A DNA stretch of 64,000 nucleotides from Acidobacteriota bacterium (GTDB lineage: Bacteria > Acidobacteriota > Blastocatellia > Pyrinomonadales > Pyrinomonadaceae), in NCBI GenBank assembly GCA_016718135.1, contig JADKEF010000002.1:3536-67535 (forward strand). The letters are read 5' to 3'. The position numbers and the translations under genes were made by a program. The notes beneath the pieces are model-generated. The model saw only the letters and a program-made list of their open reading frames with translations, was not told the origin of the DNA and searched no databases. Positions within the stretch are counted from its first letter, which is position 1. Every line of letters starts with the position of its first letter. Of this stretch, positions 16,245-41,147 are shown piece by piece.

Positions 16245-17174
16245 TTACGCGCCGAGAGCGGCGAGTCCCGCCGGGGCTGCAATATCGTCGAAACTAAAGG
16301 TGCCAACCGGAAGGTTTAGGCCGATGTCGTCGCTCGACATAACCCGTACCGTTCGCCCAAGGGCTTCAGATGCAATAGTCTGGACTTTTGCGGGGATGAG
16401 GCTCCTTCCAATTACGAGCAGGCGTTCTAGCAGATCGTTGCCCGTGACACCGCCAAATCGGTCGTTGTAAAACATCACAAGCCGATAGATCTCATCATCG
16501 ACCTCATTGGGCCGACAAGTGACCGAGCGGACAACCGCAGGCTCGCTACCGCGAAGCAAGAGAGCCGTGAATCCGTCATCATTACCGCTGATCAAAAGCG
16601 AGTCGCCTTTCTCCGCAGCATTCATAAGCCAATTTGCCTCGCCAACGGCTCGAGGTAGGATCAGCCCCGCTTTCCAACCGAAGGATTCGAAATGCGTCTC
16701 GTATTCGTCAATTACGGCGAGCTTTACTGCAGTCGCGAAATAGCGTGCCCGGCCCTCGCGATCGGGTGAGATCTTTTGTTTAGCGATACGAAGATGAGCG
16801 GCCGGAGCTCCAAAGCTCTGTTCAGCCTTCCAATCCAAGACCTCCTCGGTCTCAGCTCGCGATGTCGGGACCGAATCTAAAGTGAGGATCGTAGTCCGAG
16901 CGGTATTGCTCGGCAAGGCGATCGACCAACGCTTTTGCCCCATTAGCCCAGCGATCTCAGCCACTTCGCGTAGTGTCGCGGCGAATTCAGCATGATTGAC
17001 AATGTTTGTTTCGACAAAATTCGGCGTCAGAACGCCCGGAGCAAGCTCGACCGTCGCCGCCTGTTTGACCGAGTATTGTCGGCGTCCGCCCGAGATCGCG
17101 ACGGCAGAAATACTGCCCGCCTCGATGCCAAGGGCGGCGTTGGGATAATTTGGCTGGGTGATCGATGAGAACAT
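16245..17174 (-). CDS. PilM/GspL-like actin-fold pilus/secretion assembly protein
   Basis: 309 aa. LGIEAGSISAVAIS...Y.V......L.PGV then ALPS...R..IL.L...P.S..E......W.AE resembles the PilM N-terminal half. Last gene of the pseudopilin cluster. Confidence 0.55.
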   Translation of the reverse strand: MFSSITQPNYPNAALGIEAGSISAVAISGGRRQYSVKQAATVELAPGVLTPNFVETNIVNHAEFAATLREVAEIAGLMGQKRWSIALPSNTARTTILTLDSVPTSRAETEEVLDWKAEQSFGAPAAHLRIAKQKISPDREGRARYFATAVKLAVIDEYETHFESFGWKAGLILPRAVGEANWLMNAAEKGDSLLISGNDDGFTALLLRGSEPAVVRSVTCRPNEVDDEIYRLVMFYNDRFGGVTGNDLLERLLVIGRSLIPAKVQTIASEALGRTVRVMSSDDIGLNLPVGTFSFDDIAAPAGLAALGA

Positions 17175-17175
17175 A

Positions 17176-17622
17176 TTAATACTCGCTGAAAGCCGTGCCG
17201 TTACTATCTTCCCCTTCGGCTAGGCTTTTGACGTCAACGAGGCCCGATTCACCGTCGGCTGAGTTAGAGTCTTCGCCCTGTATCTCGTTCCATTCGGCTT
17301 TTTCTAGGATCGGATCGATCGGTTTCTCACGAAGATACTTTTCGGTCACAAGATCCTCTACCGACTGCGGTAGTTTACCCTTGTCCGCTCGGAACTGGTC
17401 GATCGAGCGTCTGATCTGAAATAGGTTCTCCTTGAGTACGATCTCACGAGCCTGACGAACGCTTCGCTCATAGGTGGGCACAGCGATTGAGAGCAATATG
17501 ATCATGATAAACATAGCGATCATCAGCTCAAGCAGAGAGAATCCCCTCTGTCGCGTCTTAATCACTGACGACGGACCACTGACCACTGACAACTGTTTAC
17601 CAATCACTATACTTCTCACCAT
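17176..17622 (-). CDS. GspG-like pseudopilin (prepilin-type N-terminal cleavage/methylation domain)
   Basis: RQRG|FSLLELMIAMFIMIILLSIAVP prepilin signal, then a GspG-like ..L..IR.SID.F..D.G..P.S...LV...YL...P.DP. The exact start is uncertain because the leader is encoded by CCACTGA heptamer repeats. Confidence 0.75.
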   Translation of the reverse strand: MVRSIVIGKQLSVVSGPSSVIKTRQRGFSLLELMIAMFIMIILLSIAVPTYERSVRQAREIVLKENLFQIRRSIDQFRADKGKLPQSVEDLVTEKYLREKPIDPILEKAEWNEIQGEDSNSADGESGLVDVKSLAEGEDSNGTAFSEY

Positions 17623-18241
17623 TTAATGCTTCTTCATCCGACGTCGAACGAACGTCAAATACATTTACGTCGTCCCAATTTTCTGAGTCGGCCGGTTGAT
17701 AGGATGACCTAATTCTCCACTCCGCTTCGCCGGTTATCGGATCCTTAGGAATTTCACGGAGATAGACTTTTATTATCTCCTTTTCCTCATTGATCTCCGT
17801 GGCTTGCAGTTCCCCGTCACGAATGCCACTTCCAGCCCGGATGTTCGGGCCCCGAGCCTTGACCTTCACTCCGTCCACCAACTGTTGGAGTGACGGTGGA
17901 TACCGATCGAGATTCTCCGAATCGAATATCTTGCAGTCATCGATCACCACGCGGCTCCTTGGGTCTGCAGGAGCGTTCGCTCCGCCTCCAGGAATAGTAG
18001 GATTTGAGGTATTTACGGCTCCTTGTGGACAGGCACCGTACGTATCCCGTTTGAACTCATCGATAGCCGATCGCATCTGCCTTAAGGCGTCTCGCAGACG
18101 CTGCTCTTTCTGGCGTTTGATCCCATTCTGAGCTAGCGGGATCGTCCCCATAACCAGGACTGCGAGCACGCCGAGCGTGGCGACGAGTTCGAGCAGGCTG
18201 TAGCCACTCTCGCCTTTTCTGATGTTAAAGCTAAGCTTCAT
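17597..18241 (-). CDS. GspG-like pseudopilin, long form
   Basis: ESG|YSLLELVATLGVLAVLVMGTIPLA prepilin signal, then LR.A..QMRSAIDEFKRD, YPPSLQQLV and YLREIPKDPITG. Confidence 0.75.
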   Translation of the reverse strand: MKLSFNIRKGESGYSLLELVATLGVLAVLVMGTIPLAQNGIKRQKEQRLRDALRQMRSAIDEFKRDTYGACPQGAVNTSNPTIPGGGANAPADPRSRVVIDDCKIFDSENLDRYPPSLQQLVDGVKVKARGPNIRAGSGIRDGELQATEINEEKEIIKVYLREIPKDPITGEAEWRIRSSYQPADSENWDDVNVFDVRSTSDEEALNGEKYSDW

Positions 18242-18250
18242 TGTCCGTGC

Positions 18251-18967
18251 CTATTCGAATCTGACCACAAGATTCCTGCCGTCGCCGGCGAGGAAACTAA
18301 GCACGTTTCGGTCGAATGCAATGACCGGCTTGCCGGCTGCGAGAGCTTCGATCTCGATAAATGCCAGCGTTCCACCCGCAACGACCTCAAGGCCGTCCTT
18401 GGTCAATAACGAAACGTACATCTTGCCATTCTGATTGAGGAAAGGCGTCGCCGCACCGTTTGCCGCGGTCGTTCCGAAGGCATCGCCAAAGGCAACACTT
18501 CGGACCGCAACCTTCGTTGAGTCAAAATTGAGCCCAATCACCGCTGACTGGAACTTGCCATTTCCTCTGACAAGCACAGGGATCTTGACCTTTTCGCCGG
18601 CTTTCATCTCTGGGAGTTCTGATCCAAACGCAAGTTCGACCGAACCAACCGACGGCTTCTCGGTCGCCCTCTCCGGTTCCGTCGCCTTAACCTCTACCGT
18701 CTCAGCAGGTTTGACGATGTCGGACGTCTGATTCAGTTGGAGTGTCTTGACAGTGCTATCGATCGGTTTGAGAATCGATGGCTGCACCTCAGCATTTTTC
18801 GTAACAACGGCTTCCGCTACCACCGCTGCACTTGGCTGAGCCGTCGTAGTAGCGTTTGCGTCGGTCTTTACAAATTCAGGGGCTTGGTCGGGAAGTCGGA
18901 CAACGGCTGTATTTCCTATGCGTCGAGCAGCGGCAAGATTCTCTTGACGCTCTTCCTCGATGATCAT
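18251..18967 (-). CDS. linker + cohesin-like beta-sandwich protein
   Basis: 238 aa with no signal peptide and a Thr/Ala/Pro/Val-rich linker. The C-terminal roughly 125 aa (VELAFGSELPEMKAGEKVKIPVLVRGNGKFQSAVIGLNFDSTKVAVRSVAFG...LAFIEIEALAAGK) follow the cohesin pattern. ATGA overlap with the secretin ORF. Confidence 0.55.
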   Translation of the reverse strand: MIIEEERQENLAAARRIGNTAVVRLPDQAPEFVKTDANATTTAQPSAAVVAEAVVTKNAEVQPSILKPIDSTVKTLQLNQTSDIVKPAETVEVKATEPERATEKPSVGSVELAFGSELPEMKAGEKVKIPVLVRGNGKFQSAVIGLNFDSTKVAVRSVAFGDAFGTTAANGAATPFLNQNGKMYVSLLTKDGLEVVAGGTLAFIEIEALAAGKPVIAFDRNVLSFLAGDGRNLVVRFE

Positions 18968-20385
18968 TGCCTCAAGGTTATTATTCGTCGGGATACCGAG
19001 ACTAGGCCGATCTGCTCGTAGTTAATTACGTTTGCCGTCTGACCAAACTGGTTATTATTATTGTTTCCGCTGCCAACACCCAAAAACTGCGCGCTCTGTA
19101 CCGGCACACGCTGTCCAATACGCGCGGAGGAGTCTTCATTATTGAAAGCATGGATCTGGGTCGAAGCAATTAGCTTTGTATTGCCTTTGCTCTGATAGGC
19201 AGCAAAGCTAGCACTTGGGAGAACGATACCGGTTGGAACTGCGGCCGGAAGAGTTGTCGCGGCAGCTCCGGCAATTAGGGTGGCTAAGGGATTGTCCCCG
19301 AGCCTTACTAATCCGGCACCCGACCCGCCGAGGGCCGTAAGTTGTGCGGCGTTTCCTACCTGAAGGCCAAACTGAAGAAAGTCGTTCTTATTGACCTCGT
19401 AAAATGCAACATCCATCACGACCTCGGCACGATCCTTGTCAAGCGAACTGATTAGCTTTGCCATTAAGCGAATATTCTCTTCGGTATCGCGGATTGTGAC
19501 ACTATTCGTCGAGTCATCTGTCAGAACGATCGTCTGCGCACGGCCTGGCTGAGGCGGGATCGCTGTCTGAACAACCTTTGCAATGTCCTTGGGGGCAGCG
19601 TTTGCTAAATAAAATGTCCTCAAAACAAGCTGCTGAAACTTCTGCCGCTGCTGTTGGGTAGCTACGAGTATCGTTCTCGGACCAACTTTCTGAAAGAAAA
19701 GCCCTTCCTGTAAAAAGATGTAATCTAGTGCACGAGCCGCGGTCACGTTCTTAAGTTCGATATTGGTCTTTCGCGGCGAACGGAATGATTCCACATCGAA
19801 CAAAACGTTGAGGTCAAGATCCTTAGCAAGCTCCTTGATAATAAACTGAAGGTCAACGCCCGACGGGAACGGTATGTCACGAAGCTTCTCGAGCCGTTGT
19901 GGCAAGGCATCAGGAGTTGCGGTCGGCGAAGCGTAACCTGTCGGAACGAGCTTGACCTTGTTGTTAGTCCCCTTGACGCCTGGGTCAGAAGCTTCGAGCA
20001 AGTCCTTCTGGAGTCGCACCATTCGATCCATTTCCGATTTCGCAAGCTCGTTGGTCGGGTCAAAAGCGTAAGCACGGCGAAATGCCAGATATCCGCCTTC
20101 GTAATCCTTTTCCTTCGCCGCCGCGGTCCCTTTTTTCATGTACATCTGTGACGCATTGAAGAGCGAGCGCGTTAGATGGAGTCGATATTCAGGATTCTTC
20201 GGATTTTCGGCTACGGCCAGAGCAAAAGACTCGACGGCCTTGTCCCACTGCTCCGCGACCTCATATTTCATCCCTTCGGCAAAATGCTTTTTGTCATCGC
20301 CAAATGCAAGAATGCTGATCGGCGACATCAAAGCCAAAACGAGGATCAAGGTGACCGGAAAACGAAAACGGTTTAGATATTTCAT
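18964..20385 (-). CDS. secretin (GspD/PilQ family) with N-terminal TPR-like region; secretin domain apparently incomplete
   Basis: Signal peptide, TPR-like helices, N-domains (NV.FD....R.....L.NV....AL), and a secretin core (AEVVMDVAFYEV..., KLIASTQIHAFNNEDSSARIGQRVPV, INYEQIGL). The ORF ends where secretins normally continue for about 80 more residues. Confidence 0.7.
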   Translation of the reverse strand: MKYLNRFRFPVTLILVLALMSPISILAFGDDKKHFAEGMKYEVAEQWDKAVESFALAVAENPKNPEYRLHLTRSLFNASQMYMKKGTAAAKEKDYEGGYLAFRRAYAFDPTNELAKSEMDRMVRLQKDLLEASDPGVKGTNNKVKLVPTGYASPTATPDALPQRLEKLRDIPFPSGVDLQFIIKELAKDLDLNVLFDVESFRSPRKTNIELKNVTAARALDYIFLQEGLFFQKVGPRTILVATQQQRQKFQQLVLRTFYLANAAPKDIAKVVQTAIPPQPGRAQTIVLTDDSTNSVTIRDTEENIRLMAKLISSLDKDRAEVVMDVAFYEVNKNDFLQFGLQVGNAAQLTALGGSGAGLVRLGDNPLATLIAGAAATTLPAAVPTGIVLPSASFAAYQSKGNTKLIASTQIHAFNNEDSSARIGQRVPVQSAQFLGVGSGNNNNNQFGQTANVINYEQIGLVSVSRRIITLRQ

Positions 20386-20477
20386 AACGTTAACAACGCA
20401 AAAAACGTGAGATCAAGGATGCTGACGCTTGTGAGCCGTAGTTATACACGGCCAAAGGTACGCAAAGTTTCAAATTC

Positions 20478-24366: not shown

Positions 24367-25399
24367 ATGAAACTTGGTAATTTCCCCGTTGTATTTTTTA
24401 CGGTAATTTTCGTCGCGATTGCCTCAGTAGCTCAAACGGGTTTCAAATCGCCGCAGCAACATATTGCGGCAATCGAAGCGGGCGAACGCGAGATCGCCGC
24501 GGATCCGTGGAATCAGAGAGCCTATACAAACCACCGCCTAGCGCTTTATGACCTCGAGAAGGAACGCAGGGCTGGACGGACCGGCCTGCCCGCGATCCAA
24601 CCGTTTCTCGACAGGGTGTCGAAGGGTCATCCCAACAATATCTGCGTCGACTGGAGCATCAAATCCCTTCGTCCCTGGAAGAACCTCAAGGAATACGCGG
24701 ATGCGGTCGAACTTTCGCTCCGTTCACATACCGATCGGCGCGGCGATACCTGCGCCGCCGATCTTGCAAAGGACGCCGGGATCATGCTGTCAAAGGACGG
24801 TCAGTACAAACGAGCCGAGGAATTCTTCGTAAAGCAAAAGGCTGTCGCTCCAAAGGACCCGTTCGTTGACGGTTACATACGCGAGGCAAAAGAAAAGGCC
24901 CACACAAAGATGATGCAGGACGTCGTGAAGATCGGAGCCGCCGAGGGCAGCAAAGAACCTAAGCTCGTTATCCTGCCCGACGGCGGTATCTACGTGGGCC
25001 AGGTGAATGCGGCGGACCGTCCTCATGGCAAAGGGCGGTATCAAGGCCAAAACGGCAACATCTACGAGGGATCATTCTTTGACGGTCAGATGACGGGCTA
25101 CGGCGTGTACAAATATACGAACGGCCGGAAGTATGAGGGCGAGTTTTACAAGACCAATTTCCACGGCAAGGGGCCGCTACGACGCGATGGAATGGGTCTA
25201 CACCGGCGACTTCAACCTCACTAAAATGACTGGCAAAGGCAAACTGGTTTATGTGAGCGGGCCCAATAAAGGCGAAGAGTACGAAGGCGATTTCCTCGAT
25301 GGACAGATCCACGGCGAGGGCACGTACCGCCAGAAAGACGGCCAGGTCGTCTGGGGCACCTTCGAGAAAGGCCGTTTGGTGAAATCGGCAAAGTGGTGA
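24367..25399 (+). pseudogene. secreted MORN-repeat protein, reading frame broken by one apparent 1-nt indel
   Basis: ORFs 24367..25224 and 25133..25399 join as ..YEGEFYKTNFHGKG|RYDAMEWVYTGDF.. (YxGxxxxGxxxGxG MORN units). The frame changes at ggcaaggggccgctac, about 25170-25176. Confidence 0.7.
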
Positions 25400-25409
25400 A
25401 GCTTCGCAT

Positions 25410-27691: not shown

Positions 27692-29198
27692 TTACAATGA
27701 GGTCATCGGCTCTGCGGACGTAATCCCATGCACACGTTTGTAAGCGAGTTCCGCGCTGATCAGACATATCTGCGTCCCGATGCCCGGATTCGTTCCCGCA
27801 CCGACATAAAACAGATTCTCGACCTTCTTCGACTTATTCTTAGGCCGAAATATCGCGGTCTGCCTTAGCGTATGAGCGAGACCGAGTGCAGAGCCTTTGA
27901 ACGCATTGTAGTCAATTCCAAAATCCGCGACCGTGTAAATACGTTTATATTCGATCTTTTCGCGAAGACCCGGCAGGTTCATTTCCGTTTCCATCAACGC
28001 CAAAACGCGATCGGCATACGCGTCCTTCTCAGCATCGGAGATCTCCAGTCCCGAAGCGATCGGCACCAGAACAAACAAATTCTCCTTCCCCTCCGGAGCA
28101 ACCGACGGATCGGTCACGCTCGGGGCACAGACATATAGCGACGGCTCGTCGGGCAGACGCGGGTCTTTGTATATGTCATCAAAATTCTTTCGCCAGTCTT
28201 CACTGAACAACAGATTGTGATGTATCAACGAAGGCAGCTTTTCGCTGACGCCGAGATACATGATGAACGCCGACGGGGCCATCGTGCGTTTTTGCCAGTA
28301 CTTCTCTTTGTGCGTTTGCTGTGGAATGTCGAGCAGCTGCGTCTCGGTGAACCACATATCGGCGTTCGAGATGACAAGATCTGCGTCGATCACTTCGCCG
28401 CCTTCGAGTCGCACTCCAACCGCCTTTCCGTCGCGAACGATGATCTTCTCGACCGGTGAATTGGTCCGTAAAACCGCTCCATTCTTCTCCGCGATGTTCG
28501 ACAAAGCCCTGATCAGCTCGTAAAAACCGCCCTGCGGATAAAACACTCCCTGGTTAAAGTCCATGTGCGACATCAGGTTGTACAGCGCCGGGGCTTCGTA
28601 GGGCGAGGTGCCGAGGAAGACCATAGTGTATTCCATCACCTGCTGCAGCTTTTTCGACGTGAAGAACTTCGACACAAACTTATGCATCGTCGAGAAAACC
28701 GAAAGCTTTTGCCCCTCGGTCATCACGCGTTTGTTGAAAAAATCGAAGATCGTATCGTAATTCTTAAACATGAAGTGCTGCGTCGCGACTTCATATTGAT
28801 ATTCGGATTGTTTCAAATAAGCCCGCAGCTTATCACCCGCTCCCGGCTCGATCGCGTCGAAGGTTGCGGTGTCGATGTCGATATTTGAGTTGATATCCAG
28901 CGGATCGCCGTTGTTGCGAAAAAAGATGCGATACGAAGGGCCGAGTTTACGAGGTCAAGATGATCCTCGACCTTTTCGCCTACGAGATTAAAGTAATGCT
29001 CGAAGATGTCCGGTGCCAGATACCACGACGGCCCCATGTCGAACTTAAATCCGTCATGCTCCAGAAAATGTTCGCGCGGCCGCCGAGGTTCGCGTTTTTT
29101 TCCACGACGGTCACATCGTAACCCTTCCGCGCAAAAAGACCGGCGGCCCCGAGACCGCCGATTCCAGCTCCGATAATTACGAGTTTCTTACCTACCAT
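27692..29198 (-). pseudogene. crtI: phytoene desaturase family (CrtI/CrtD), frame broken by two apparent 1-nt indels
   Basis: Three ORF pieces join colinearly: MVGKKLVIIGAGIGGLGAAG..VVEKN..LGGRA | ..HDGFKFDMGPSWY..EDHLDLV | ..LGPSYRIFF...FMFKNY...C-terminus. Shifts at about 29065-29075 and about 28944-28950. The start overlaps the crtB stop (TAATG). Confidence 0.8.
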
Positions 29199-37093: not shown

Positions 37094-39779
37094 TTGAACC
37101 AGCCGTTATCCAAACTTATGAGATCAGCCTCTCGCTTCTTCGTCACCGTGTTTCTCGTCGCGATGCTCTTGTCGAACGCATTACCGTGCGGGCCGGGCTA
37201 CGTCTCGCCGTTGTTTGATACGACTTCCGCTCCGGAAAATCCGTACACAGACTTTGCGGCGGGGGATTGGGATCGTTAAGCCAAGTTTCATCGCTCGGTG
37301 CTCTACGCGGCTTATCGGCATATCGCAGGAAACGGGATGAACACGCCGGAACAGCAGGCGATCGTCAGTATTTGGAAGGCCGAGATCGACAATAAAGATT
37401 TTCCTGACGACACCGTAGATGAAGCAGTAAAACTGTGGGTGGCTCAACGAAAAAAGGTTGAGATGAAGGAGGAAAAGCCGCCCGAGATCTATACCGAACG
37501 ATCCTACGGAGGTTACGATTTCTTTCCGAATTGTACTAAAAATGCGTTTGAGACCGCGGCTGAGACGCTGTCAGATCGGGTGAGCTCGCACGGGCCAAGT
37601 GATGCAGGTGTCATCAATTGGGTCACGGCTCAGGACCAGGTCTTTGAGAACTGTGCGAGCGGCAAACGAACGCCGGACGAAGCGAATCCCGGTTCGCCGC
37701 AATGGCTGCAGAAAGATCGTGCTTATCAACGGGCTGCAGCCGAGTTCTATTCACTCGATTTTGAATCCGCCAAAAAGCACTTTGCCGAGATCGCTCAGGA
37801 TACCGAATCGCCATGGGCCGAGACAGCCGATTATCTCGTAGCTCGTACGCTTATTCGACAGGCGAGCCTTTCGAAAGATGCAGCGAAGTCCGGTGCATTC
37901 TACGACGAAGCTGACGCACGTCTCGCAAAATTCGTCTCACGCTCGGGCAAATTTACAGCCTCCGCCGAACGGCTCGCCGGCCTCATCGCCTATCGCCGCC
38001 GTCCAAAAGAGCGCGTCAGCGAACTCGCCAAAAAGCTCGCATTTCCGGCCAATGAGAATTTCCGCCAGGATCTGATCGACTACACGTGGCTACTCGACAA
38101 GTTCGAGACCGAAGTACTCGCCAACGAGGAAAAACGCAAGGAAGCCGAGCGGACCAAGAACGATCCGGTCGTTAACGCGACAGCAAACACTGAAGTCGAG
38201 CCCGAGACCAGGGCAGCGAACAAGCCGACCAAGAAGAACGAGGACGATCTCGAACTTTCGATCTACTTTGACTCAGGCTCGATAACGGTCTTCGTCCCTG
38301 TTGATGCCGACGACAATGTCGCTATCGCCGCCGCCGAGAAGGCCGTTGGCAAGGCGTTAACCAAAGAGCAGAAAGATCAGGTTCGCAGCCTCCGGCAGAC
38401 TGCTTACTCTAGTCGTTTTACGGAGCAAAAGAGCGGCTACGAAGGCGGTTATTATGGCGATGAAACTCTGACACCATCTCTCTTGCCTGCATTTTTGAAA
38501 CAAGACGACTTAACTGATTGGCTTTACACCTATCAGATGCCCGGTTCGGCAGCGTATCTCTATTCATTTGAACGATTTAAGGCGACGGCGTCGGATCTGT
38601 GGCTAATGACCGCCCTGTCAAAGGCGGACAAAAGCTCCTCCGAACTTCCCCGCCTTCTTGAGGCTGCGGATCGTGCCAGCCGCTCGGCTCCCGGCTATAC
38701 GACGATCGCGTATCACACGGCTCGCATCCTGATCGAAACTGGCAAAAACGCCGAGGCTCGTAAGCTCATCGACGAAATGCTCGCGCAGGGCGACCGTTTG
38801 CCGATCTCCGCACAGAATTCCTTCATGACGCTGCGGCTCAAGCTTGCGGCGACCCTGGAAGATTTTCTGAAAGACTCGCTGCAGCGGCCCTATGCATTCG
38901 ATTACTCAGGCGATGTAAGCACTGTCGATGAGATCATCGCCGAGCAAAAGACATACTACGACCCCGGAATACAACAAGGAAGGCCGCGAGGCTTTTGACC
39001 GCGAGGTCGAGGAGCGATTTACCACGCAGAAGCTCTGGCAGGATCGGCTGATGTTCGATTCCGCGATCATTGAAGTATTCAATCAGTATTTCCCGACGCA
39101 GCAATTGATCGAGGTCGCCAAGTCACCCGCTTTGCCCGAGTACCATCGCGAACGCTTCATCGTTGCCATCTGGACACGAGCCTTTCTTCTCGACGATCTA
39201 GCAACAGTTCTTCGTATGACGCCCGAGCTGATCAAATACCATCCCGAGATGGCAACGCAGCTCGAGCCGCTGATGACGGCGAAAACGCTGCCCGCTCAAG
39301 ATCGTGCATTGCTCTACTTTATTTTGAAGAACCCGCTTTTTAGTCCGTACATTGAGGACGGAATGGGCAAGACGGACAATGTGCAGGAGCAGTTCGATTC
39401 GAACGACTGGTGGTGCGAGCCTTACGATGAGGAGTATAGCGACCTAGAGAATGCGTCTATTCCGCGCAAACTTCCGCAGCGGCCGGCGTTCCTGACGGCT
39501 GCCCAGAGCAAATTGGCTCAATCCGAGCGAAAGCGTTTGCGAGAGTCGGGCGACGCACCGAAATTTCTTACCGCAAAAGTCCTCGACTGGGCTAAAAAAG
39601 CACCTGCCGACCGGCGTGTTCCCGAGGCTCTTTACATCATGATAGAAGCAAATGGCTGGACGAAATACGGCTGCGGAAACAACGAAGACCTTCGCAATGA
39701 ACTCGTCGCGTTGCTCAAGAAACGCTACGCGACGAGCGAATGGGCCGCTAAACTGGCGGAGCAAGAGAAAGATCAGTAG
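37094..39779 (+). pseudogene. large secreted hypothetical protein (about 895 codons), interrupted by an in-frame TAA and one apparent 1-nt indel
   Basis: The signal-peptide ORF 37094..37279 is in the same frame as ORF 37298..38998, separated by the TAA at 37277-37279. ORFs 37298..38998 and 38928..39779 join as ..EQKTYYDP|EYNKEGREAF.. at a C4 run, about 38961-38965. Confidence 0.6.
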
Positions 39780-39781
39780 GC

Positions 39782-41096
39782 TCAGGCTGACTTTGCGATT
39801 TTGCCCTTCCTACGCGACGCCTGAATAAAATCTTCAGCCTCGCGCATCTCTTCGGCGTCGCCGGTGATGAGGCGGGCACTGCGTTCTCGTGTGAGATAGG
39901 CCCAGAACCACGACAACATCACTGCCACGCGGTTGCGAAATCCGATGAGAAAGAACACGTGGAGGAACAGCCACATTAACCACGCGACAAAGCCCTTGAA
40001 CTTCATGCCGGCCGCCTCTGCGATCGCCTTCTTACGGCCGATCGTCGCCATTGTTCCTTTATCCCAGTAGGTGAAGTTCTTCCGCGGTTTGCCGTTAAGA
40101 TCGGCAAGAATATTCTTCGCCGTCGCCGTGCCCATTTGCATCGCCGCCGGGCTCACGCCCGGAACGGGCTCGCCGTTCCCTTGCAGGAGCGATGCCATGT
40201 CGCCGATGACGAATAGATTTGGAAAGCCCTTTAGCGACAGGTCTTTTTCGACAAAAACACGTCCTGCCTTATCGATCTCAACGCCCAAGGCTTTGCCCAT
40301 CGGCGAGGCAGCAACGCCTGTTGCCCATAGCACGACATCACATTCCATCCATTCGTCGCCGACCTTCACGCGGCCGGGCTTGATCTCAGTCACAAAGCTG
40401 TTGAGGCGAACCTCGACGCCGATCTGTTCAAGCTGGCGTTTGGCACTGATAGACAATTCTTCGGCGAAAGTATTGAGCACACGATCCGAGCCTTCGAATA
40501 ATGTGACATGCGTGTCTCGCGTGTCGATCGCTTTGAAATCTTTGGCAAGCGCCTGACGGGCGATGTCCGCGATAGCACCAGCAAGCTCAACGCCGGTCGG
40601 GCCGCCGCCTACTACGACGAAGTTCAGCAGCCGCTGTTCGCCGGTGAGATAGGCGTCGCTCGGCGAGTTCGAACGCGAGCAGTACGCGACGGCGTATCTC
40701 GACCGCATCCTCAAGGGTCTTAAGTCCCGGAGCCGAAGTCTCCCAATCGTCATGGCCAAAATAGGAATGCCGTGCACCACCTGCCACGATCAGATAGTCA
40801 TATTTGACGCGGGCTCCGTCCATAAGGACGACCTCATTCGACTCCTTCTCGAATGCTACCGCCTCACCGAGTATCACCTCAATATTCTTGTATTTACCAA
40901 GTATCCGCCGTATCGGCTGAGCGATCTCGCCTGGAGAAAGCACCGCCGTCGCCACCTGATAAAGCAGCGGCTGAAAGACGTGATGGTTCTTCCGGTCGAT
41001 CAAAGTCACCTCGACCGGCTCGTTCCCCAGAGCCTCCGCCGCCCAGAGTCCGCCAAAGCCGCCGCCGATTATTACTACTTTTGGTTTGTTGGTCAT
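39782..41096 (-). pseudogene. ndh: type II NADH:quinone oxidoreductase (NDH-2), frame broken by one apparent 1-nt indel
   Basis: PKVVIIGGGFGGL...LLAFELAE | DAYLTGEQRLLNFVVVGGGPTGVELAG.... The shift is at about 40655-40662. ATG at 41096. Confidence 0.8.
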
Positions 41097-41147
41097 AATA
41101 TCGCCTCCATAAGTAAGGCGAAAATCCGTAAGCATGCGGCTCACGTT

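Follow-up and report, generated by a model that had tools for sequence, protein, structure and literature searches.

Whether a secretin can do without most of its barrel domain is the question raised by a locus on the minus strand of a 64,000-nucleotide (nt) stretch of Acidobacteriota DNA (family Pyrinomonadaceae; assembly GCA_016718135.1, contig JADKEF010000002.1, positions 3,536 to 67,535), which is called the window below. At this locus a secretin-like open reading frame (ORF) of 473 amino acids (aa; 18964..20385, minus strand) is followed by an ORF of 238 aa (18251..18967, minus strand) that has a cohesin-like C-terminus. The locus was compared with other assemblies of the same species and with orthologues from related genomes. 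The comparison makes us nearly certain that both ORFs derive from a single 830-aa gene, from which 358 nt are missing in this assembly alone. Judged from these alignments, the locus is not an atypical secretin but a normal gene with an assembly-private 358-nt hole.

The secretin ORF of the window stops inside the barrel domain

First, the domains of the 473-aa ORF were examined with Pfam. The Secretin_N domain (PF03958) was found at residues 256-320 (19426-19620, minus strand) with 44.4 bits against a cut-off of 28.2. The secretin barrel domain (PF00263) was matched at residues 396-460 (19006-19200), but over profile positions 1-58 of 169 only and with 16.7 bits, which is under the cut-off of 27.5; a genome-wide scan gave the same partial result for this ORF. 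An earlier note on this DNA, made by a model from the sequence alone, had said that the secretin ORF stops inside its secretin domain, and this was confirmed. The PF00263 envelope is not complete within 18964-20385, and the ORF has a Secretin_N-type N-domain ahead of the barrel and no complete secretin domain.

The part of the gene that is retained at the 5' end (codons 1-461; 19004..20385, minus strand) was delimited by Pfam and by base-for-base identity with the intact conspecific loci L019-L021 and L023. In addition to Secretin_N and the first third of the PF00263 barrel, it contains a signal-peptide-like N-terminus, a TPR region (about 20050-20286) and a weak STN-like stretch, for which the STN score of 18 bits was under the cut-off. 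The 473-aa ORF ends in NVINYEQIGL followed by VSVSRRIITLRQ and a stop codon. This tail and its TGA stop (18964..19002) are out of frame and were made by the frame change; the intact allele translates this stretch as LGIPTNNNLEAMI. The part retained at the 3' end (18251..19003) lies in another frame and corresponds to codons S581-E830 of the intact protein. On the minus strand this second frame opens at about 19021 and gives ..DRPSLGIPTNNNLEAMIIEEERQENLAAARRIGNTAVVRLPDQ.. (in a longer reading ..DRPSLGIPTNNNLEAMIIEEERQ..). The earlier note was right that the frame of the downstream ORF is open past the break.

Conspecific assemblies carry a single intact gene

Conspecific contigs were retrieved by means of two neighbouring proteins of 214 aa and 309 aa, which were encoded exactly in 18 and 15 public contigs, respectively. 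Every conspecific contig reaching the site had one 830-aa ORF between cinA and the 214-aa gene. This single ORF was present in at least seven conspecific assemblies from different samples, namely the NCBI metagenome-assembled genomes (MAGs) GCA_016703285.1, GCA_017997755.1 and GCA_018057625.1, the Logan assembly SRR11088487, and the ENA assemblies ERZ28613981, ERZ28614725 and ERZ15185635; the identical 830-aa protein was encoded by seven contigs. In GCA_017997755.1 the gene lies at positions 7131-9623 of contig JAGOEJ010000018.1. The order of parts in the intact protein is signal peptide, TPR, STN/N-domain, secretin barrel, linker and cohesin-like module, and PF00263 was matched over its full length (residues 396-565, profile positions 1-169 of 169, 98.9 bits). 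The intact ORF of the conspecific assemblies thus bears out the suggestion that the two ORFs of the window are pieces of one secretin-cohesin fusion.

Next to this, the DNA of window positions 18245-20390 was aligned with the conspecific loci, including L018-L021 and L023 (alignment A6). All of the 2146 retained bases of the window (2146/2146) were the same as those of L019, L020, L021 and L023, and L018 differed from the window at two retained positions. The alignment showed that exactly 358 consecutive nt (columns 1388-1745) were absent from the window. Since 358 nt amount to 119 codons plus 1 nt, their absence accounts for the 119 missing residues as well as for the frame change by one base. 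A further assembly, L022, likewise contained the 358 nt. In the intact alleles they run TACACTTAAATTT...GCGACCGGC and comprise the third base of codon L461 and codons T462-G580. The deletion junction, ...ATCGGCCT joined to AGTCTCGG..., lies between 19004 and 19003 on the minus strand, so that the frame switch which the earlier note had seen in 'ggcctagtc' at 19000-19010 was located exactly. A gap placement by pairwise MAFFT alignment with the 84%-identical locus L013 was also tried and was wrong; the exact junction was taken from the conspecific alignment.

The earlier note had offered a 1-nt indel as the cause of the split. According to this explanation a single indel near 19000-19010 would interrupt an otherwise complete fusion; a related possibility is that programmed frameshifting brings ribosomes back into frame. 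It is true that the two frames differ by one base at the junction. However, the window differs from the intact alleles of alignment A6 by 358 nt, not 1 nt, and with the frame restored the product would have 711 aa and be without residues 462-580. As regards frameshifting, the continuous single frame in relatives implies that there is no conserved recoding signal. We give either explanation practically no credence.

The deleted form was then looked for in other places. Exact-pattern scans of metagenome contigs beside the junction gave 0 matches to the deleted form in other assemblies, and look-ups found no exact record of the 473-aa and 238-aa products; an exact look-up of a 439-aa dipeptidase likewise found no record. 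The lost 119 aa were not found elsewhere in the genome, in which the sole match was an unrelated PilQ-type secretin (E 0.015).

The lost segment is highly conserved among orthologues

Relatives of the gene were collected by a homology search with the 473-aa ORF, in which candidates were limited to 1.75 times the length of the query (828 aa), which excluded the conspecific 830-aa protein. Over a thousand relatives were obtained. More than 100 orthologues of 796-828 aa combined Secretin_N with a complete Secretin domain, and Cohesin was present in many of them as well; they are annotated either as 'secretin N-terminal domain-containing protein [Pyrinomonadaceae]' or as 'general secretion pathway protein D'. 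In orthologue P0003, for example, PF00263 was matched at residues 396-564 (profile positions 1-169 of 169, 97 bits). In the genomes of 30 relatives, every copy that was not cut by a contig end was one open frame, and the same-genus genomes that span the site had a single frame of 811-931 aa. The secretin was full-length in all the same-genus genomes and conspecific assemblies that span the site, a result that the earlier note had named beforehand as a pointer to an assembly deletion.

Comparison of the window ORFs with eight orthologues showed that exactly 119 residues, TLKFKP...ER(A/Q/P)TG, were absent from the window, and this segment did not vary in length among the aligned relatives. The loss had previously been put at about 80 residues, which is too few, as 119 residues and 111 profile positions (positions 59-169 of PF00263) are gone. 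Downstream of the break, SLGIPTNNNLEAMIIEEER..RRIGNTAVV.LPDQ aligned to the conserved segment after the barrel in the intact orthologues. The continuation of secretin sequence in the other frame, which the earlier note had read there, was a chance resemblance: SLGIPTNNN...RRIGNTAVV is the segment that comes after the barrel, and the rest of the barrel is absent.

The lost segment aligned with residues about 468-577 of E. coli GspD (5wq7). From the structures of GspD and PilQ we take the lost region to be the later barrel and gate strands, beyond the first gate hairpin, together with the conserved loop ..GLPxLGxIPxxGRLF.. (P-L-L-G-x-I-P-x-x-G-x-L-F) and the barrel strand that comes last. Across 107 orthologues, 71 of the 119 lost columns were at least 97% conserved. 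By this measure no other part of the secretin-cohesin family is as well conserved as the lost segment, and because of this conservation its loss would be strongly deleterious to function. The 358-nt loss removes PF00263 positions 59-169 and shifts the frame, and the shifted frame leads to a translation stop 12 codons later. The product as written would probably be unable to form a secretin channel, a 12-15-mer pore in the outer membrane, as one third of a barrel domain would not be expected to close or to give the double barrel.

These data also bear on a natural two-gene arrangement, which had been proposed as the other explanation of the split. In such an arrangement a secretin whose barrel is short by nature would be translationally coupled to a separate cohesin-like protein through the overlap of TGA and ATG in ATGA. 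The overlap is indeed present at 18964-18967, as had been reported, and a GAGG precedes the ATG of the 238-aa ORF by two bases. However, none of the relatives and conspecifics examined has two genes here; the same-genus genomes and the conspecifics have the single frame with the full PF00263 domain. The ATG (18965-18967) is the internal Met593 of the intact protein, which is nearly invariant across orthologues, and the TGA is a shifted-frame reading of codons A592-M593-I594. The ATGA overlap is for these reasons not evidence of translational coupling and is a by-product of the deletion. Moreover, a 238-aa product started at Met593 would have no signal peptide, a third of the barrel domain would not be expected to close a beta-barrel, and the segment that is lost is the one that the family conserves most. 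Two coupled genes are refuted by the conspecific alignment, and we hold them to be extremely improbable.

Other genes are broken in the same assembly

The window's assembly consists of 20 contigs of up to 775 kb, and a 16S gene lies inside one of them. It looks like an error-prone long-read MAG because of these long contigs and the internal 16S gene. Three small contigs of the bin, C12, C13 and C14 (5-16 kb), had a G+C content of 0.73, 0.72 and 0.29, respectively, against 0.50-0.55 in the rest of the bin, and are probably binning contaminants.

Several genes of the window were compared with conspecific assemblies. In an NDH2-type gene (minus strand; ORFs 39782..40780 and 40587..41144), 2 nt (GC) were missing at 40659/40660, in a GCGCG / GAGCGCGAC context, in comparison with the short-read loci L030 and L031. 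The loss of these 2 nt splits a 451-aa NADH dehydrogenase into ORFs of 185 aa and 332 aa. A secreted hypothetical protein of 774 aa (plus strand, 37298..39779) had CCCC at 38962-38965, where two conspecific short-read assemblies had CCC; the extra C, a homopolymer-type error, splits the protein into ORFs of 566 aa and 283 aa. By ORF length only, a MORN gene (24367-25400) encoded 285 aa in comparison with 343 aa in conspecific assemblies, and crtI (27692-29198) encoded 374 aa in comparison with 501 aa. The data indicate that the window's assembly is indel-prone. Long-read metagenome assemblies with indel errors, and with too many pseudogenes counted in them, are said to have been described by Watson and Warr in 2019, for example.

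Further frame breaks were seen at about 32940 (rpsB tail), and at about 45965 (a BNR/sortilin-like gene) and 51560 (a giant adhesin-like gene of 3588 aa), where they were judged by eye from protein continuity that shifts frame. The long-contig MAG GCA_016703285.1 has breaks of its own, with MutS2, Ada and UDG split, and the secretin gene is intact there.

Origin of the 358-nt deletion

We then considered whether the deletion was made in the assembly or in the cells. We infer, with slightly better than even confidence, that it was introduced in long-read assembly or consensus building and is absent from the cells, in which case the organism would carry a normal intact gene. Several observations argue for this origin. 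The long contigs and the internal 16S gene fit a long-read MAG. Other genes of the window are broken in this assembly and are intact in short-read conspecific assemblies. The junction is blunt: no microhomology was found there, and the breakpoints in the intact allele have neither inverted repeats nor the direct repeats that commonly border spontaneous deletions. The strong conservation of the lost segment, 71 of 119 residues, counts for this origin as well. The retained parts have no extra substitution, and the three partner genes are undamaged.

Selection on the retained parts was examined by the count of rare substitutions. Of 200 conserved columns, 3 carried rare substitutions in them, where members of the family have a median count of 1 and at most 10. 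Because all 3 were shared with the intact conspecific allele, this count gave no signal of relaxed selection in the retained parts. At 271 highly conserved columns the intact protein of the species had 6 such substitutions; among family members the median is 1, with the 90th percentile at 5 and the highest count at 10.

Several points weigh against an assembly origin or speak for a real, very recent, strain-private deletion of 358 bp. Such a deletion would have turned the gene into a pseudogene and disabled the associated pseudopilus apparatus, with the canonical type IV pilus secretin intact. The small errors that were compared directly are of 1-2 nt only, so that an error of 358 nt is atypical for this assembly and outside its usual class. 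A second indel of hundreds of bases was not seen in the roughly 35 kb that were compared by ORF length, and the DNA of the remaining broken genes is of about full length. The junction is that of a clean single event. The consensus of a long-read assembly normally follows the majority of the reads, and a real deletion in the population gives the same sequence. Real strain differences between assemblies do exist, such as the 2 substitutions (40388 and 40381) near the NDH2 break relative to conspecific assemblies. The loss need not be lethal, since there is a second complete secretin at C17:378398-383422, and the species' intact protein already has the 6 rare substitutions. However, the gene is intact in the seven or more other conspecific assemblies, which come from different samples, and the retained parts are identical. 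A real deletion would also have occurred without microhomology at its ends and without secondary decay in the gene or its three partner genes, in an assembly that is demonstrably indel-prone. We consider a real deletion possible, at somewhat less than even probability.

A variant of the real deletion is that it became fixed and that both fragments are made and used, as what is left of a surface apparatus, either dominant-negative or put to a new use. A poreless periplasmic fragment with TPR and N-domains would then be accompanied by a cohesin-like fragment re-initiated at the ATGA, and selection by a phage that uses the structure as receptor could be possible. This variant is very unlikely.

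The split is of importance chiefly as a warning. Gene callers will report a short secretin and a hypothetical protein at this locus, and the pair can be mistaken for a barrel-less secretin or a two-gene system. Other split genes in this assembly need to be checked against conspecific short-read assemblies before they are interpreted. A real deletion would amount to an ordinary loss-of-function allele of very recent origin. Of greater interest, and a separate question, is the intact family of TPR-secretin-cohesin-like proteins in Pyrinomonadaceae.

Neighbouring genes and the second secretin

Three intact genes follow on the minus strand. The 214-aa protein (17597..18241) is prepilin-like, with weak N_methyl/GspG-like matches. 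The 148-aa protein (17176..17622) is a GspG-like pseudopilin, with N_methyl at 34.3 bits and TIGR02532 above the cut-off, and is of equal length in the short-read conspecific loci L019-L021. The 309-aa protein (16245..17174) bears a faint PilM-like resemblance (PilM_2, E 0.2 only). The cluster of the secretin-cohesin gene, two genes for prepilin-type proteins and the 309-aa gene is syntenic in relatives between cinA and mutS2.

The secretin-cohesin family is widespread in Pyrinomonadaceae (window 16245-20385; L013, L018-L029). Its members, of about 800-830 aa, consist of TPR, STN/N-domain, secretin, a long linker and a C-terminal cohesin-like module. Two prepilin-type genes and the 309-aa gene always lie downstream of the secretin-cohesin gene, and the cluster has no ATPase or platform gene. 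Orthologue P0003 was below the NCBIfam equivalog cut-offs for both GspD (TIGR02517, 138.3 against 351.35 bits) and PilQ (TIGR02515, 101.2 against 284.35 bits), and on these scores the intact protein is a secretin of no subfamily named by NCBIfam.

There is one other secretin in the genome, which is complete (554 aa, PF00263 152 bits). It is encoded last in an intact canonical pilM-pilN-pilO-(pilP)-pilQ operon (C17:378398-383422), in which PilM_2 (238 bits), PilN and PilO were also matched. The PilQ of this operon carries a long Gly-rich insert, ..GGGGGGGAESAGGGGGG...

The C-terminal module

The structure of the 238-aa ORF product was predicted by AlphaFold2. Residues 109-238 (18254..18643, minus strand), which are residues 701-830 of the intact protein, formed a beta-sandwich with a predicted local distance difference test score (pLDDT) of 88-97, and above 90 over most of the module. 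The sandwich is preceded by a low-confidence Ala/Thr/Pro-rich linker (18644-18964, minus strand) with one short predicted helix. In a Foldseek search of the PDB, the 50 best matches listed were all cohesins, the best being 6kgf_C (E 4.9e-8, template modelling (TM) score 0.72 on the target). The model predicts that the last 130 residues do fold as a cohesin-like sandwich, in agreement with the cohesin-like character that had been assigned to this part from the sequence. By Pfam, PF00963 had no match in the 238-aa ORF at E up to 1; its cut-off of 24.1 was exceeded in orthologues P0008 (35.3 bits) and P0065 (27.4 bits).

A literature search turned up no relevant description of a secretin with a C-terminal cohesin domain in Acidobacteria. 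The C-terminus of a secretin is normally on the periplasmic side, and for this reason the cohesin-like module may serve as a docking or pilotin-like element built into the protein.

Comparison with known systems

The break resembles nanopore-type assembly errors in that the window has large contigs and homopolymer or short-repeat indels in genes that are intact in short-read conspecifics. However, a blunt loss of 358 nt is unusual beside the typical 1-2 nt long-read errors and would need a skip in a backbone read or a collapsed variant.

The closest known kind for the C-terminal module is the cohesin modules (PF00963), including the non-cellulosomal 2xdh (Archaeoglobus) and 2jh2 (C. perfringens). 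In the Foldseek matches the fold of the last ~130 residues agrees with type I cohesins, with TM scores of up to 0.74 on the target, although the window's own sequence has no Pfam match to PF00963 at E up to 1.

For the secretin part, the solved structures nearest in sequence are E. coli GspD 5wq7 (E 1.3e-18), 6i1x, and PilQ 6ve2 and 9x0w. The intact allele shares with the GspD and PilQ secretins (PF00263 and PF03958) an STN-like stretch, Secretin_N, a complete PF00263 domain and prepilin-type neighbours. In contrast to them, the intact protein adds an N-terminal TPR and a C-terminal extension of roughly 265 residues that ends in the cohesin-like module. The copy in the window, which is without profile positions 59-169, would not be a functional member of this group.

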